This document shows, piece after piece, positions 17,119 to 24,260 of a DNA stretch of 64,000 nucleotides. A program made the position numbers and the translations under genes. The notes beneath the pieces are model-generated. The model saw nothing but the letters and a program-made list of their open reading frames with translations. It was not told the origin of the DNA and did not search any database. Numbering within the stretch: the first letter of the stretch is position 1; every line of letters starts with the position of its first letter. The stretch is from Candidatus Binatia bacterium (GTDB lineage: Bacteria; Desulfobacterota; Binatia; Bin18): assembly GCA_963664395.2 (NCBI GenBank), contig OY761159.2, positions 128,001 to 192,000 on the forward strand, in the 5' to 3' direction.

Positions 17119-17142
17119 GGGCGACGCATGCGTCGCCCCTAC
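17115..17142. repeat. Perfect 28-bp GTAG-type REP palindrome, possible bidirectional terminator
   Basis: GTAGGGGCGACGCATGCGTCGCCCCTAC lies between convergent genes. Confidence 0.85.
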
Positions 17143-20100
17143 CTCACATCCGTAATGACAAAATTCTGACTATTCTGCTGCCACTCCAACAGCACGTTCT
17201 GCCCCAGGCGGGGGAAGTCCTCTACTACACACTCCCCCTCGGCCCCCCGTAGAAACTCTTCCTCTGCCCCTTCCCCCACGGTCGTCACCCGCACCGTCGC
17301 CCGGCCTAACTCCACCCCATCCACGAAGGCCACGACTTCATGCTCCCCATCGCCCAACAGATTCCAGTTGAACAACAGCCCAAAGCCGTTGTCCGTATCG
17401 CCACACACGCTGGCCGTGTCCAGCCGCTCCGTCCCATACGCCGCCACCTGCGGGGCTCCGTTCAACTCCAGTTCCACCCGGTCGGCGTCACACACCCAGC
17501 CCGACAGGACGCCCACCCCACTTTGGAACGAGAGATCGCCGGGGTTCTCCAGATAGCCCTGCACAAAGGTGACGACCACATCGTAGCCCCCGGTTGCCCC
17601 CCCCTGCCCTTGTACGGCCACGACGACTGGGCCGGCCTGCACGAGGGCACCAAGCCGGTCGTCTTGCGGATCGCCACGCGTGGAGCCGGACGCCAATATC
17701 CTGTCGTTCTGCCAGATGGTCCCGCGGGTCTGTACTCCGCCGAAGGTGTCCACAAAGACCAGTCCTCGGCCGGGGGCGGTCACGGTCAAATAATCTACGT
17801 CGGCGGCCGGACAGATGGCTCCGGCAGTTGTAGCAGACAAGGCAATATCAGTGGCTTGCGCCGCGCTGTTACCGTGTAAATCCTCCGTGCAGTCAGGACC
17901 ACGACCGCCGCCACCACCACCGCCACCACCACCGCCACCAGGACCAGGACCAGGACCGGGCGGTCCTGGCGGTCGGGGCGGCGAAGACGAGACGGTGATG
18001 AAGACGGGGACTTCGTCGGATTCCCCGGACGGGTCAGAGGCGATCACGGTGACCTGGTAGGGCTTCTGGGGTTCATCAGCCTTCGTGCTGATCGTGCGCT
18101 GCCCGAGTGACCGCGTCACTTGGTCCGCACAGGGCGATAGTCCCCCTGGACCTACCGTGATCTGTCCGCTGATCCAGTCGATATCGAAACAGGCCGCGTC
18201 CGCGTCCTTTTCGTCCAGCGTGTAGGTGAGCGGGTAATCCTCTGGGTCCTCGGCCCTCACCGTCCCGACGCGGCTCCCCGCCCCCGCGTTGGCTCCGACG
18301 GTGAGGGTGGCCGAGGGCGCGGGAAATGCCGGGGGAGCATTGTTGACCGGCGCCGTCCGCACCGCATGGGGCGCAACGATCTGCGCGCTCTTGGTCTCGT
18401 TGAGGTCGGCTCCATCGGTATACGTCACCGTGACACGCAGGTACCAGCCCTCATCATCAGTCTCCGGCGTATAGCTGGCGGCGGGCGTCCCCCTGACGGC
18501 CTCCCACGTCTGCTTATCCTGTGACCGCTCCCAGACCCAGTCGGTGGAGACGAGGCCGTCGGGATCGGTCAGGATGGCAGTCAACGCGGTATCGACCTGC
18601 GGCTGCACCGACGACAGGGTCAGATTGCCTGCTTCATCCTCGTTGGTCACGGTAACAGTCACGGGCAGCCCAGCCGTCAGCTCTCCATCGAAGGCCTCTA
18701 CGGTCACCTCGTAGTCGTTGTCGCGGTTGAAGTCGGTGGCCTCTTCGCGGTTGGGCGGGATGAGAAAGGTGAGGACGCCGTTGTTGATCGAGAAGGTCGT
18801 CCTGTCAGCTCCCGACAGCACCCACCGAATCGGGTCGTGCTCCGGGTCGGTGGCACGGTAGGTGGCAACTGGTCCCGTGTCGTTCTCCTCGTAGTCGTTA
18901 ATGGCAATCGGCCCAGTCAGCGTGGGCGACTCGTTGACGTTGGTGACACTGACGGTGACGGTCTGTCTCGCGGTATGGCTCCCGGCGGAGGCTTCCACGG
19001 TCACGGTGTAGCTGCTAGCCGCCTCGTAGTCGGGCGGGGTGAGGAAGCGCAGGATGCCGCCGTTGAGATTGATGTCTTCGAAGGCGTTGCGGTCAGCTCC
19101 CGCCAGCGCCCAAGTGAGCGGTTCCTGCTCCGGGTCGGTCGCGCTGAAGGTAGCAACTATCCCGGTGTCGTTCTCCTCGTACGGGACGCTGGTCCGGCCG
19201 GTCAGCGTGAGCGGTTCATCTACGTCGGAGATGTCGATGGTCACAACGATGGAGGCGGAGGCTCCAGAGGGGTCGGTGGCCGTCACGGTGACGGCGTAGC
19301 TATCCTTTGTCTCGCGGTCCAACTCCGTCCCCTCGGCCACCGTCAGTTGGCCGGTATCGGGGTTGAGGTCAAACGAACCGGTGTCAGCGCCCGAGAGCGT
19401 GTAGGTCAGCAGGTCTTTGTCCACCTCGTCCGCATCCGTTGCCGTCACCGGGGCGCCGACGGGACTCTCTGCTGCCGCGTTCTCCTGGACGCTCCGGGTC
19501 GTGGTAGCAGCCGGGAATTGTGGTGGGTTCCTGCCCTGCTCATCCCTTACCGGATTGGCGGCCATACGCTGGAGCTCTTTGCTGACGGGATCATCATATC
19601 CATCGGTGTAGGTCACCCTGACCCGCAGGGAGTCGCCCACGTCATCGCTCGCCGGTGTGTAGCTGTTTGAGGTCTCACCATCAATGACCGTCCACGTGCT
19701 CCTGTCCGAGGAGCGCTCCCAGACCCAGGTGGAGTCGGAGACGATGTCGGGATCGCTCAGGGTGGCCGTCAGCGCGGTGGCCTCCTGTGGCTGCTCCGAC
19801 GACAGGGTCAGGCTGCCTGCTTCGTCCAGGTTGTTGACGGTGACGGTGAGGGGCTGCGGCGTGGTGAGGTCTCCATCAGAGGCGACCACGGTCACTTCAT
19901 AGTTGTTGTTGCCGTCGGCGTCGGCGCGCGCCTCGAAGTTGGGAGCAGGGGCGAAGTTCAGAACGCCGTTGGTGATGGTGAAGTCGTCATCGTCGTTTCC
20001 GGTCACCGACCAAATGACGGTCGCGCCCTCCGGGTCCGTGGCGGTGTAGCGGGCGACCTGGGCCGTGTTGTTCTCGTCATACAGTGGAACGCTGGTCGGT

Positions 20101-23100
20101 CCCGTCAGCGTGGGTGGTTCATCCACATCGGTGACACGGAAAGTGATGGCGTGCCGTCTGATGTGAATCCCAGCGCGGGCGGTCACGGTCATCTCATAGA
20201 CGTTGTTGCGGTTGGCATCGGCGGGTCTCTCGTAGTCGGGCGGGGTGCGGAAACGCAGGACGCCGCGGGTAATAGAAATGTTAAAGACGCCACGGTCGTC
20301 TCCGAATCCTGACCATATTGGGGACACGCCCTCCGGGTCGGTGATGATGTATTTCGCAACCGGCCCGGTGCCGTTCTCGGCATACGACGAGACGCGGAAC
20401 AGCTCTGTAAGCGTGTGTACTTCATCCACGTTGGTGACAGTGACGGTGACGGGCAGTGTAGCGGGGCTGGAGGTCCCATCCGAGGCGACCACGGTCACTT
20501 CATAGACGTTGTTGTCACCGGCGTCGGTGGGCAACTCGTAGTTAGGAGCGGTACGGAAGCTCAGGATACCGTTGCTGATGGAGAAGTCATCGTGGTCGGT
20601 TCCAGCTAGCGGCAACCAAGTGAGTGCCTTCTTCTCCGGGTCGGTGGCGTCGTATTCAGCGACCGGGAGAATGTTGTTCTCGGCATACGGGACACTGTCT
20701 TGGCCGCTCAGCGTGGGCGATTCATCCACATCGGTGATGGTGATGGTCACGGTGATGGAATCGGCGTCGGCGGTGGGATCGTCGGTCGTCACGGGGTCGG
20801 TGGCCGTCACGATGACGACGTAGCTGTCCTTGGTTCCCTCGTAGTCCAGCGCCGTCCCCGAGGCTACCGATAGTTGGCCGGTGCTGTCATCGATATCAAA
20901 CGAGCGGACGTCGGTGCCTGAAAGCGTGTAAGTCAAAGTCTCATTGTTGGGATCGGTCGCCACGACCGGGACACCGACGTTGGTGCCGGTGGTCGCACTC
21001 TCATCGACGCTCCGGGTGGCGGCGGCGCCGTCCGCAAAGTAGGGCGTGTCGCTTGAGGGCGTCTCGGTGGCCGTGTCTGACCACACGCCGTCGCCCTGGG
21101 CGTTGACCGCCTGCACCTGCACGTCGTAGGCCACGTCATCGTCCAGGCCGCTGATAGTGTATTGCAGAGCGCCGGAGGTCGCGGGGTCAACGACGGTCCA
21201 GTTGGCGGCGGCCGTCTCGTCATCCGTGGTCTTGATAGAGCGCACATCGTAGGCGGTGACGGCGGAGGCGCCGCTGTTGTCCGGCGCCTGCCAGGCAACG
21301 GTGAGTGCGCCGGGCCCCGGCGTCACTGCGTCGATGTCCGGTGCGTCGGGGGTGAACCGGTAGCCGTAGACGGTCAGGCTCCACGACTTCAACGTGCCGG
21401 AGGAACCGGATACGCGGTCGCTGATGCGCAGTGTCCACTCCCCGGCGGGATTCTCGCCCAGGTGCTTGGCCGAGCCGAACCGGAAGCTCCTCCGTAAGCT
21501 GTATTCCTCCTCTATGATTATGGCGGCGGTTCTATGATCGTAGGGAACGGACAGGACAGAAATCTTCCCCGACGGGGAGGTCAACTCTACCTGTAAGTTA
21601 CGGAAGTATCTGTGGTCGAAGTCAGTATTGATTTCGACGAACTCGATGAACTCGACCGTCGAGTCCATAGTGATGCTACTCGTGACCCAGGAGCGCGAAT
21701 CGGGAATACTCAGAGAGCCACCGGTGAAGGGTGCGGCGTCTGTGGTAGCCTTGGTCAGTTCCGGAACAAGGGTCCAGCCGTCGGCCAAATCCACGGCGGC
21801 CTTGGCGTCCACCACCCCGAAGCCGTACTCGTGGTTGAAGTGGTAGCGCTCCGTGTCAGAGTCGTATTGCAGCGCCCCGTCCTCCCAGCCGGTGTTGTCC
21901 GGGTCGTTCTTGCGGGCGGACGCGGCCAGGATGAGCTTCACGTCCCGCCAGCTCAGGGCGGTATTGGCGCTGCGTACCAGCGCGGCCACGCCGGAGACGA
22001 TGGGAGCGGCCGCACTGGTGCCGCCAAAGTCGTTCCTGTAGAGGTCGTCGTTGTCGGTGGTGGTGATCCCGTGGCGACCGCGGGTGCGGTCATTCGACGG
22101 CGCGCAGACCCACAGGTTGGCACCCTCTTCCGAATACGCGGAGCGCTCGCCCTGGTCGTTCACCGCGCAGACCGCAGTCACGCCGTAGTGGTTGGCGTAC
22201 CCGCCTAAGTTGGAGTTGTCTCTCCGCAAGGCCCCGTTTCCGGCGGTCCAGACATAGAAGATGCCCTTGTCGTCAAAACCTTCTGTGATGCCTTTTTCTA
22301 TCGCCATCTCCCAGATTCTGGGAGCGGCGTCCAGTCCGGGCCCGTCGCGCGGTCCCCAACTGTTGTTGGAGACGGCTGTGGTATCCAGATTGCGTTTCGC
22401 GGCGTCCGCTTCGTTTTTATCGGTGAAATCCAGGAGGAGGTTGTAGCCGTAGATCGTCGCCTGGGGCGCCACTCCCCGCACGCCCAGGCTGTTATCCCGC
22501 GCCGCGATGATGCCCGCCACCGCCGTACCGTGGTCTTCGGCGGGATCGTAGATGTCGTTCCCGCCGGTGTAATCGTGGTTGCGCGCTGTATTCACGTTGG
22601 CGCTCAGATCCTCGTGCGTATAATCCATGCCGTCGTCGACCACGGCCACATTGATACCAGCCCCCAGGTTGTTGTCGTCCCAGACCTCTTCGACGTTGAT
22701 GTCCTCGCCTGACGTCCCGCCTGTGAGCTGCCCCGTGTTGTTCAGATGCCACTGACAACCGTACAGCAGGTCGCTGATTGTGTCATCGATATCCGCACAG
22801 TCGGCTAGAAATCTGTTGTAGCTCGCGTCTTCAAACGCGCGAATGGTGTACGGCCCGGTGTCGTCACTGTCAATCACCGTGCCGCTACTGTTCTGGAGTT
22901 CGCCCACGGTATCGAGAGCGCCGGTCGTCCAGATGAGCAGGCCGGTCTCTTCGGTCAGGGTGAACGTGAAGTAATCCACGTCGGTCCCTGGGTCGATCAC
23001 CCCTTCCATAGCGGTGTCCAGCGTCAGGCTCGTCGCCTCCGAAGCGCTGTCCCCATGATCCGGGGCGCCCGTTTCCGTGGTGGACCAGGTGCCGTCGCCG

Positions 23101-23471
23101 GTGGCGTTGACCGCCCGTACCTGCACGTCATATTCCGTGCTGTCGGTCAGACCGGAGAGGGTGGTGGACAGGGCGCCGTCGCCGGATTCCCAGACCTTTT
23201 CTTCCACGATCCAGTTGGCGTCGTCCGTCTCGTCGTCGGCAGTCTTGATAAAGCGCACATCGTAGGCTTCGATGGCCGAGCCGCCGGTGTCGGCGGGTGC
23301 GGTCCAGGTCACGACCAGGGTGAGACCGAGCGAACTGCTGCTACCCGCCGTAACCGTGGTGATGCTGGGCGCGCCGGGTGCAGTCTGCGCCCAGGCGTCA
23401 CCAGCGACCAGCAAGCAAAACAGCACCCAGCCTGCCGTCCGTAGTAGAGTTTTTCCCACGAGTAAGCGCAT
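17139..23471 (-). CDS. Giant secreted S8 kexin/furin-like serine protease with P-domain, FN3 and cadherin-like repeats (2110 aa)
   Basis: Signal peptide (AWA-Q); triad VAVVDDG/HGTAVAG/GTSAAAP; SWGP, AGNG, WRDVK, GFGVVDA; P-domain (GENPAGEWTLRISD); 2 FN3; cadherin motifs (ATDPE, LDYE, PDYE, VTDVDE); Pro/Gly linker. Confidence 0.93.
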   Translation of the reverse strand: MRLLVGKTLLRTAGWVLFCLLVAGDAWAQTAPGAPSITTVTAGSSSSLGLTLVVTWTAPADTGGSAIEAYDVRFIKTADDETDDANWIVEEKVWESGDGALSTTLSGLTDSTEYDVQVRAVNATGDGTWSTTETGAPDHGDSASEATSLTLDTAMEGVIDPGTDVDYFTFTLTEETGLLIWTTGALDTVGELQNSSGTVIDSDDTGPYTIRAFEDASYNRFLADCADIDDTISDLLYGCQWHLNNTGQLTGGTSGEDINVEEVWDDNNLGAGINVAVVDDGMDYTHEDLSANVNTARNHDYTGGNDIYDPAEDHGTAVAGIIAARDNSLGVRGVAPQATIYGYNLLLDFTDKNEADAAKRNLDTTAVSNNSWGPRDGPGLDAAPRIWEMAIEKGITEGFDDKGIFYVWTAGNGALRRDNSNLGGYANHYGVTAVCAVNDQGERSAYSEEGANLWVCAPSNDRTRGRHGITTTDNDDLYRNDFGGTSAAAPIVSGVAALVRSANTALSWRDVKLILAASARKNDPDNTGWEDGALQYDSDTERYHFNHEYGFGVVDAKAAVDLADGWTLVPELTKATTDAAPFTGGSLSIPDSRSWVTSSITMDSTVEFIEFVEINTDFDHRYFRNLQVELTSPSGKISVLSVPYDHRTAAIIIEEEYSLRRSFRFGSAKHLGENPAGEWTLRISDRVSGSSGTLKSWSLTVYGYRFTPDAPDIDAVTPGPGALTVAWQAPDNSGASAVTAYDVRSIKTTDDETAAANWTVVDPATSGALQYTISGLDDDVAYDVQVQAVNAQGDGVWSDTATETPSSDTPYFADGAAATRSVDESATTGTNVGVPVVATDPNNETLTYTLSGTDVRSFDIDDSTGQLSVASGTALDYEGTKDSYVVIVTATDPVTTDDPTADADSITVTITITDVDESPTLSGQDSVPYAENNILPVAEYDATDPEKKALTWLPLAGTDHDDFSISNGILSFRTAPNYELPTDAGDNNVYEVTVVASDGTSSPATLPVTVTVTNVDEVHTLTELFRVSSYAENGTGPVAKYIITDPEGVSPIWSGFGDDRGVFNISITRGVLRFRTPPDYERPADANRNNVYEMTVTARAGIHIRRHAITFRVTDVDEPPTLTGPTSVPLYDENNTAQVARYTATDPEGATVIWSVTGNDDDDFTITNGVLNFAPAPNFEARADADGNNNYEVTVVASDGDLTTPQPLTVTVNNLDEAGSLTLSSEQPQEATALTATLSDPDIVSDSTWVWERSSDRSTWTVIDGETSNSYTPASDDVGDSLRVRVTYTDGYDDPVSKELQRMAANPVRDEQGRNPPQFPAATTTRSVQENAAAESPVGAPVTATDADEVDKDLLTYTLSGADTGSFDLNPDTGQLTVAEGTELDRETKDSYAVTVTATDPSGASASIVVTIDISDVDEPLTLTGRTSVPYEENDTGIVATFSATDPEQEPLTWALAGADRNAFEDINLNGGILRFLTPPDYEAASSYTVTVEASAGSHTARQTVTVSVTNVNESPTLTGPIAINDYEENDTGPVATYRATDPEHDPIRWVLSGADRTTFSINNGVLTFLIPPNREEATDFNRDNDYEVTVEAFDGELTAGLPVTVTVTNEDEAGNLTLSSVQPQVDTALTAILTDPDGLVSTDWVWERSQDKQTWEAVRGTPAASYTPETDDEGWYLRVTVTYTDGADLNETKSAQIVAPHAVRTAPVNNAPPAFPAPSATLTVGANAGAGSRVGTVRAEDPEDYPLTYTLDEKDADAACFDIDWISGQITVGPGGLSPCADQVTRSLGQRTISTKADEPQKPYQVTVIASDPSGESDEVPVFITVSSSPPRPPGPPGPGPGPGGGGGGGGGGGGRGPDCTEDLHGNSAAQATDIALSATTAGAICPAADVDYLTVTAPGRGLVFVDTFGGVQTRGTIWQNDRILASGSTRGDPQDDRLGALVQAGPVVVAVQGQGGATGGYDVVVTFVQGYLENPGDLSFQSGVGVLSGWVCDADRVELELNGAPQVAAYGTERLDTASVCGDTDNGFGLLFNWNLLGDGEHEVVAFVDGVELGRATVRVTTVGEGAEEEFLRGAEGECVVEDFPRLGQNVLLEWQQNSQNFVITDVR

Positions 23472-23489
23472 GGTCTTGGGTCAGTGGCT

Positions 23490-23644
23490 AGTAGTGCCTC
23501 ACTTTGTATTGCCCCCCTCACCCCAGCCCTCTCCCTCCAGGGGAGAGGGAGTAGGACATTCCCTCCCCCCCGTGAGGGGGAGGGCCAGGGAGGGGGGAGC
23601 TGTGCAGGCAGAGGTGAAGGGCGCTGTGAAACTGAGACATTACC
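23490..23644. mobile_element. MITE-like element (about 155 bp) with imperfect terminal inverted repeats and internal hairpins
   Basis: GTAGTGCCTCACTTT (23491) matches the reverse complement of AAACTGAGACATTAC (to 23643) at 12/15; internal CCCTCTCCC..GGGAGAGGG and CCCTCCCCC..GGGGGAGGG hairpins are related to 11855-11888. Confidence 0.55.
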
Positions 23645-23651
23645 CGGTCGC

Positions 23652-24260
23652 TCACCTTGTTGTATGTTCTCTCCACCAGTTGGGGCTGGAGATGCGCACC
23701 CCGTCCTGCGCGGCCAGCGTGTTGGCCAAATTCAGGGACGCAAAGCCCGGCGCGGTCTCCACAAAAAAGCTGTTGGCGGCAACCTCCAAGTCTGACACCC
23801 GGCTCAGCTTGACCCGGTTGCGGGCGAAAAAGGCATTGGTCTGCGTCTCGCTCCACTCCGCCTCCAGCACCAGCAGGACACCGCCGGGCAAGGTCATCAG
23901 GGTGCCCGAGGATTCGGACCGGAACACCGGTTGCCCGGTGCTCCGCCTGGAGCTGTCGTTGGTCACGATGTGCTCCCCGCTGCCTCTGGCGACGCTGCTG
24001 TCCCCGCTCACCTCCAGGTCGGACTGCAACTGCACCCGCACGGTGCGATCGCCATCTTCGTAGGTGTAGATCTGCCCCTGGCTACTTTGGCCGGAGTCGC
24101 CGCGCGTTTGGGGACTACGCTGTTTCAGGGCGGGAGAGCGCTTGTCTGCAGAAGGCGGGTCGATTGATTCAAACTCAAGCGGCTGCGCCCACGCACCTGG
24201 CGAGGCAACCACTGCCACAACAAATAGAACGATACGAAGGTCCATTAACCGTCTGTACAA
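23652..24260 (-). CDS. Secreted protein resembling a stand-alone subtilase propeptide / ASP-type external chaperone
   Basis: Signal peptide (GAWA-Q); C-terminal PVFR..LPGGVLLVL..ASLNLANTLAAQDGVRISSPNWWREHTTR resembles S8 pro-domains; co-oriented directly upstream of the protease. Start may be ATG 24245. Confidence 0.7.
   Translation of the reverse strand: MYRRLMDLRIVLFVVAVVASPGAWAQPLEFESIDPPSADKRSPALKQRSPQTRGDSGQSSQGQIYTYEDGDRTVRVQLQSDLEVSGDSSVARGSGEHIVTNDSSRRSTGQPVFRSESSGTLMTLPGGVLLVLEAEWSETQTNAFFARNRVKLSRVSDLEVAANSFFVETAPGFASLNLANTLAAQDGVRISSPNWWREHTTR

Follow-up and report, generated by a model that had tools for sequence, protein, structure and literature searches.

A small secreted protein encoded next to a giant kexin-like protease in a Binatia bacterium is probably the detached propeptide of that protease

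In a 64,000-nucleotide (nt) stretch of the genome of a Candidatus Binatia bacterium (assembly GCA_963664395.2, contig OY761159.2, positions 128,001 to 192,000; hereafter, the window), a small gene for a secreted protein (23652..24260, (-)) is followed on the same strand by the gene for a giant kexin-like protease-adhesin (17139..23471, (-)). We propose, with a probability of about 0.78, that the small gene encodes the propeptide of the protease as a separate polypeptide, i.e. a detached propeptide. This reading is supported by the one-to-one pairing of the two genes, natural fusions between them, a basic tail of fixed length in the small protein (hereafter, the partner), its type of fold, the similarity of its family profile to that of propeptides encoded in cis, and a predicted complex of the two proteins. 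External, propeptide-like chaperones that serve a kexin-like protease are in principle already known from Aeromonas; the best-supported view of the partner is that it is distantly related to cis propeptides, has been split off, and works like the ORF2 protein, the external partner of the Aeromonas protease ASP.

The protease gene is an open reading frame (ORF) that encodes 2110 amino acids (aa). Signal-peptide-like residues 1-28 are followed by an FN3 domain (residues 36-132; 23076..23366, (-); Pfam fn3, E 9e-12) and a weak PPC-like stretch (residues 137-229; 22785..23063, (-)), within which the match to PF04151 (PPC) at residues 164-209 lies below threshold (E 0.081; 14.2 bits, with a cut-off of 25.9). 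The kexin-type catalytic domain (Pfam Peptidase_S8, residues 270-552; 21816..22664, (-)) scores 145.6 bits against a cut-off of 21.8, and the P-domain directly after it (Pfam P_proprotein, residues 610-700; 21372..21644, (-)) scores 63.5 bits against a cut-off of 21. Among proteins of solved structure, the closest by sequence are kexin of yeast (4e-57), ASP of Aeromonas sobria (3hjr/3wqb; 1e-46) and furin. The alignment with kexin spans both the S8 and the P-domain and places D279, H314 and S486, together with the oxyanion residue N412, on the catalytic residues of kexin; all 25 aligned relatives have the same four residues. A second FN3 domain (residues 720-801) and a cadherin/Ig-like stalk (about 810-1830) occupy 17982..21314 (-) and were recognized with Pfam fn3, Cadherin (126.2 bits) and Big_9; repeat-end motifs lie at residues 908, 1008, 1410, 1505 and 1604 of the protein.

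Subtilases are the textbook case of folding aided by a built-in propeptide. In this protease, residues 1-270 matched no propeptide or inhibitor family of Pfam at E <= 10, the only matches being fn3 and the sub-threshold PPC; the whole protein matched no such family at E <= 0.01, and a six-frame search of the bacterium's own genome found no match to either PF22148 (Fervidolysin_NPro-like) or PF18492 (ORF_2_N; E <= 1 for the latter). The original prediction, made from the letters of the window, had described the two ORFs, the order of the protease domains from the first FN3 to the cadherin stalk, an intact D/H/S triad and the lack of a recognizable propeptide; all of these hold, with the PPC-like domain at sub-threshold level.

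As an ORF, the small gene runs for 202 aa from a TTG at 24260; its true start is probably the ATG at 24245, which gives 197 aa, and a database protein (P0004) is identical to this 197-aa version, starting at the ATG five codons further on. In the translation, read by eye, the N-terminus MDLRIVLFVVAVVASPGAWA, followed by QP, is signal-peptide-like (24186..24245, (-)). Residues 58-202 (23655..24089, (-)), as delimited from alignments and an AlphaFold2 model, make up the conserved domain of the family, which has a beta-sheet part on its N-terminal side (about 60-123) and, after it, a beta-alpha-beta-beta-alpha-beta part (125-192). The C-terminus reads ...SSPNWWREHTTR; in the family alignment, PNW is followed here by the seven-residue tail WREHTTR (23655..23675, (-)), the last residue being Arg.

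The partner and its relatives form a large family of their own that has no name. A word-indexed search retrieved 1560 proteins at E <= 0.01; when 1.84 billion cluster representatives (clusters at 50% identity) were searched with an HMMER profile, 936 of them matched at E <= 0.001, of which 348 also reached E <= 1e-30. The family is conserved over the C-terminal ~145 residues, with N-termini that differ and range from a plain signal peptide to a lipobox-like start with long Pro/Ala/Thr-rich linkers. The motif [SAG][STAG]PNW was found in 243 of 265 family members and, among these 243, the chain ends exactly 7 residues past PNW in 232. The last residue of these 232 tails is Lys in 132 and Arg in 70 (202 with a basic end), Pro is the penultimate residue in 35, and the consensus of the tail is W-R-E-x-T-[TPA]-[KR]. 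A product-like tail that extends from a docked body to the S1 pocket of a kexin-like enzyme would require just such a fixed length and basic end. A lipobox-like motif within the first 45 residues is present in 54 of the 243 motif-bearing members; in the aligned relatives P0094, P0103, P0116, P0123 and others, a lipobox-like start (e.g. ...LAGC) precedes a long Pro/Ala/Thr-rich linker, and judging from these N-termini, the partner may be lipid-anchored in such relatives.

The pairing of the two genes is strict in the bacterium's own genome, which contains exactly three small genes (86-88% identical to each other) and exactly three kexin-like S8+P genes, arranged as three pairs in which the small gene immediately precedes the protease gene, none of the small genes being unpaired. 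To this we add that the second paralogous protease gene (C1:3356149-3363060) seems to be broken, with a 1906-aa ORF followed by two short ORFs that carry C-terminal domains. A scan in which each prokaryotic species was represented by a single genome produced 187 stretches, from which 80 loci were kept; three of these end at a contig edge within 600 nt downstream and were left out, giving 77 evaluable loci. A near-full S8+P module was found on the same strand within 3.5 kb downstream of the small gene in 72 of the 77, and the gap between the small gene and the protease gene is 130 nt or less in 65 of the 69 resolved gene pairs, 17 of the 65 being overlapping pairs. As for the other five loci, L007 contains a remnant, the module of L065 lies 8.9 kb off, and L009, L039 and L079 have none within 10 kb. 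At L009 (and protein P0080), the protease module is missing from the downstream adhesin homologue and the small gene has lost its SSPNWW tail, running into unrelated sequence instead, which fits a partner that is useless without its protease.

According to the record titles, 64 of the 80 loci belong to Dehalococcoidia/Chloroflexota, 9 to Acidobacteriota (Ca. Multivorans, Holophagales), 4 to Binatia/Binatota, 2 to Actinomycetota (Acidimicrobiia, Ca. Spongiisociaceae) and 1 to Thermodesulfobacteriota. The partner family was unmatched in a sample of 200 other genomes from the bacterium's own phylum, including one of the same genus. The scattered taxa, together with 0 of 200 in the phylum, indicate a patchy distribution, with the two genes travelling together. 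The same-genus genome (G110) is 100% complete and shows no match to the partner family, compared with three copies in the genome of the window; this difference suggests a recent gain or loss.

In several cases, the partner domain and the protease are parts of one protein. At loci L022 and L067, a single ORF encodes a signal peptide, an FN3 domain, the partner domain, a linker, PPC-like repeats and the S8 module, with no second signal peptide after the partner domain. The best 150 cluster representatives include P0132 (3846 aa) and P0135, in which the partner domain (about residues 110-285) comes before Peptidase_S8 and P_proprotein, and P0229, in which it precedes Peptidase_S8; in P0136 (5724 aa), the partner domain lies near the N-terminus. 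In L067 and P0135, Arg occupies the position where stand-alone partners end. The location of the domain N-terminal to the protease in the fusions shows that, in cis, the partner domain holds the place of the pro-region. A structure model of the L022 fusion (1011 aa) has a mean predicted local distance difference test (pLDDT) score of 72.9, with low values over the linker and most of the partner domain, and is silent on docking.

The AlphaFold2 model of the stand-alone partner, built with a 20-row alignment, has pLDDT values of 81-97 over residues 111-190 and is less confident in the preceding beta-sheet part; the order of elements is beta (128-132), alpha (138-147), beta (155-158), beta (164-167), alpha (173-183) and beta (188-192). 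Foldseek comparison of the model with the PDB yielded nothing at E <= 0.001 and returned generic ferredoxin-like folds only. A VIA-align search of 48,161 chains placed seven S8 propeptides or I9-type inhibitors among the top 50 (Z 5.5-6.4), namely the PC1/3 prodomain complexed with furin (9fid_D; Z 6.4, root-mean-square deviation (rmsd) 2.5, 66 residues aligned), EpiP (3t41_A), pro-subtilisin E (3whi_B) and CspC (6mw4_A), each with Z 5.9, POIA1 bound to subtilisin (1v5i_B; Z 5.7, rmsd 3.5, 68 residues), an Aspergillus alkaline protease (8gko_A; Z 5.6) and the subtilisin propeptide (3bgo_P; Z 5.5). The ORF2 chain of 3WQB was not among the best 50 fold matches listed, and VIA-align applied to the top 1000 of Foldseek gave nothing beyond the wide search. 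Language-model neighbours of the partner include clusters carrying PF22148 and PF18492 (scores 0.91-0.94, those with PF18492 at 0.91 and below), which we treat as a lead only.

At the level of profiles, we compared the partner family with 27 cis propeptides that match PF22148 and were taken from genomes of the same phylum. The hhalign alignment covers 74 columns with a probability of 51.5% (E 1.5e-4) and places SSPNW of the partner on AEPNY of the cis propeptides; reversed profiles reached 0.3% and the best of 30 column shuffles 0.9%. In 15 of the 27 cis propeptides, seven residues separate PN[YF] from the next P[ND]D motif, where the extracted stretch ends. This P[ND]D motif, whose counterparts would be ISDLLYGCQWHL in the protease of the window and SINDPLFERQWHL in kexin, may be read as the N-terminal edge of the mature domain, in which case the detached partner ends at the putative border between pro-region and mature enzyme of the cis forms.

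A complex of protease residues 230-710 with partner residues 56-202, each supplied with a 25-row alignment from paired loci, was predicted with an interaction prediction score from aligned errors (ipSAE) of 0.94 in each of three runs, compared with 0.00 for the best of three controls. Of the 157 solved complexes used for calibration, 116 reached the ipSAE mark, as did 2 of the 215 mismatched pairs. The runs have at least 88% of contacts in common, and the pLDDT of the partner is at least 84. On the protease side, the predicted interface includes D279-D280, H314, N412, G484-S486 and 371-377 (with D376); on the partner side, it includes all of 192-202 together with two conserved stretches of the N-terminal part, DGDR and FRSESG. 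Invariant positions of the partner show no enrichment in this interface, which contains 9 of the 32 such positions and is formed by 35 of the 147 residues. The original prediction had likened the upstream protein to an S8 pro-domain ending at a basic residue and had pointed to gene neighbourhoods, fold and complex modelling as ways to examine this. The profile alignment, the prevalence of Lys and Arg at the tail end and the compatible fold agree with the likeness; the upstream position of the partner gene recurs in several phyla, the topology of the model is propeptide-compatible (tied with unrelated folds), and the C-terminal tail is predicted to lie on the catalytic residues. The core of the original prediction, a propeptide-like partner acting in trans on a kexin-like protease that has none of its own, is supported in this way; its further points, namely a need for the chaperone, display at the surface and an effect on host or matrix proteins, are putative.

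The closest known system is the Aeromonas pair. ORF2 reportedly has a propeptide-like body. According to PMC5638518, ORF2 is a temporary inhibitor and maturation factor of ASP, the final Lys of its Gln-Pro-Lys C-terminus is located at the catalytic centre of the protease, and orf2 lies downstream of asp. The two systems (for Aeromonas, PDB 3WQB and PF18492) are alike in having a kexin-like S8 plus P-domain protease without a cis propeptide, a small partner encoded beside the protease gene, and a basic C-terminus of the partner, which is Lys in ORF2 and Arg in the partner of the window; 35 of the 232 family tails also share with ORF2 the penultimate Pro. They differ in gene order (the partner gene of the window is upstream of the protease, whereas orf2 is downstream of asp), in that the partner family of the window aligns with cis propeptides and occurs naturally fused, and in the protease itself, which is a 2110-aa multidomain protein here and a 600-residue chain in Aeromonas. 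PF18492 matched none of 20 partner-family members at E <= 10 and had no six-frame match in the genome; by sequence, the partner is not a member of the ORF2 family. The analogy with ASP and ORF2 drawn in the original prediction stands for the propeptide-less kexin-like protease with an adjoining small partner; it does not extend to membership in the ORF2 family by sequence, and the gene order is reversed.

Compared with cis propeptides (PF22148 and the I9 type), the partner has the same beta-alpha-beta-beta-alpha-beta body in its model, a final strand with the shared motif V-x-[YI]-[AS]-[ES]-P-N-[YW], and the same seven residues from this motif to its end that lead, in cis forms, to P[ND]D. Unlike them, it is encoded by a separate gene with its own signal peptide (cis placement was found only in L022, L067, P0132, P0135 and P0229), it bears an additional conserved beta-sheet part on the N-terminal side (about 60-123), and it lies below the detection limit of Pfam models (20 members, E <= 10). 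Neither POIA1 of Pleurotus nor the propeptide-like protein that acts on SUB1 of Plasmodium is known to us to be encoded in a strictly conserved, operon-like pair with a protease that lacks a propeptide. Both resemble the partner (POIA1 as 1v5i_B; the Plasmodium protein according to PMC6993865) in being separate small proteins of propeptide fold that act on a subtilase. A literature search found no description of the partner family or of such pairs in sponge-associated bacteria (supplements lay outside this search).

If the partner is a detached propeptide, each of the two proteins would be exported separately by its own signal peptide. Outside the cytoplasm, the beta-alpha-beta-beta-alpha-beta body of the partner and its N-terminal beta-sheet extension would dock on the catalytic domain of the protease, and the seven-residue tail would occupy the substrate cleft in the manner of a cleaved product, its last residue (Arg or Lys) lying at the S1 site. 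If the analogy with cis propeptides and ORF2 holds, the partner would serve as a folding template and would inhibit the enzyme until the partner is released or degraded. Binding, the requirement for a chaperone, inhibition and release are steps that we infer.

The evidence from gene context, tail, fold and complex would be equally expected if the partner were a dedicated inhibitor and nothing else, i.e. a stand-alone I9-like regulator or self-protection factor for a protease that folds alone and is kept silent until it reaches the surface. Stand-alone propeptide-like inhibitors do exist, such as POIA1 (1v5i_B, Z 5.7) and, according to PMC6993865, the inhibitor of Plasmodium SUB1. However, no cis propeptide is detectable in the protease, the fusions put the partner domain at the site of a cis propeptide, and ORF2, the closest functional precedent, is described in PMC5638518 as required for maturation besides being inhibitory; accordingly, we regard a purely inhibitory role as unlikely. 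The lipobox-like motifs of some family members and the long Pro/Ala/Thr-rich linker before the domain in the aligned examples would also suit a protein that is mainly a tether or adaptor, fixing the giant protease to the cell envelope. This is very unlikely to be the principal role given that neither the copy in the window nor its close relatives have a lipobox, their signal peptides being plain, and that the predicted contacts are centred on the active site rather than on a peripheral surface; the roles of tether and propeptide could coexist. Finally, the small gene could encode a secreted protein that is unrelated to the protease and does not interact with it physically, the two genes merely staying together, since adjacent genes are co-inherited anyway. 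The pairwise distances of the two proteins are correlated (r 0.69; 0 of 2000 permutations reach this value), which linkage alone predicts and which we therefore do not count as evidence of interaction. Mere co-inheritance is at odds with the fusions to the protease, the fixed length and basic end of the tail, the profile match to cis propeptides, and the gap between the complex score and the best control, and appears extremely improbable.

Several observations weigh against the detached-propeptide reading itself. The partner had no match at E <= 10 in Pfam, NCBIfam or PDB sequences, neither did any of 20 diverse relatives scanned singly against Pfam at E <= 10, and the family profile found no sequence match in the PDB. 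The RRM, ACT and ribosomal protein S6 folds tie with the propeptide matches (Z 5.4-7.2), such that the fold is compatible with a propeptide and by itself not diagnostic, and the hhalign probability of 51.5% is modest, over the null and under the usual level of proof. Among the 232 tails, 30 lack a terminal Lys or Arg. L079 is a true orphan, with an intact small gene and no protease within 10 kb downstream, and at L039 an intact small gene lies beside a homologue of the adhesin part without a protease module. In at least six loci (L012, L018, L026, L032, L035 and L077), the downstream ORF contains two kexin-like catalytic modules, ~3 kb apart, for a single partner gene. Propeptide-subtilase complexes have already been solved structurally and are possibly in the memory of the model, so that the ipSAE value shows likeness, not binding. 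In the S1 region of the protease, D376 in SWGPRDG is kept; at residues 421-424 (about 22200-22211), the protease has SNLGGY where most of the 25 relatives have SNL[DE][EG] in the alignment. The position that we take to be that of furin Asp306 in the S1 pocket is thus Gly in this protease and Asp or Glu in most relatives, which makes the basic P1 specificity of the copy in the window uncertain.

The Aeromonas pair was the sole external chaperone for such a protease that the literature search found. The 936 clusters, spread over several phyla of uncultured bacteria, suggest that detachment of the propeptide into a separate gene is a recurrent arrangement that extends beyond a few gammaproteobacteria, and the fused intermediates show how a detached propeptide may have originated. 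With this reading, a large number of 'hypothetical proteins' acquire a name and a function that can be tested. Co-expression of the partner would be a practical recipe for producing giant kexin-like proteases, and the partner would be a natural, specific inhibitor scaffold for bacterial kexin-like enzymes.

Association with sponges, which is taken from record titles, one taxon name and one run label, makes these proteases candidates for the processing of host matrix. A more far-reaching scenario is conceivable, and in our view rather doubtful: a two-gene cassette would have passed by horizontal transfer between sponge-associated bacteria of four or more phyla, with a furin/kexin-like head on a cadherin/FN3 stalk and with the propeptide split off as a separate exported protein, lipid-anchored in some lineages, and would supply a host-like convertase that cuts matrix or adhesion proteins of the host at basic sites, mimicking the convertases of the animal. 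If this were true, splitting off the propeptide would let the cell control the place and time of activation of a host-like proprotein convertase.

At the C-terminal end of the protease, the stalk is followed by a Pro/Gly-rich linker (residues 1828-1860), a second PPC-like stretch and a 135-aa domain (together 17142..17990, (-)); a Pfam scan of the last 253 aa at E <= 10 yielded nothing. The last 135 aa (17142-17546, (-)) have 138 tblastn matches in the bacterium's own genome, at about 40-84% identity and often as tandem pairs about 450 nt apart. Language-model neighbours of this domain carry Big_7 Ig-like domains, which is again a lead only. The domain may be a surface-anchoring or sorting module common to many proteins of the genome.

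The spacer between the small gene and the protease gene (23472..23651, (-)) is 180 nt long in the window, compared with a gap of 17 nt in the two paralogous pairs of the same genome. It holds a 39-nt G/C-rich palindromic repeat (23513-23551), of which the genome contains 26 more copies and which looks like an insertion of the repetitive extragenic palindromic (REP) type. At this repeat, very high read depth with loose ends on both sides was seen in four of four runs, and one DNA contig omits 163 nt. Exact metatranscriptome contigs from one run cover 23891-24254 in the small gene and 21279-21511 in the protease gene, and possibly derive from DNA in the library.

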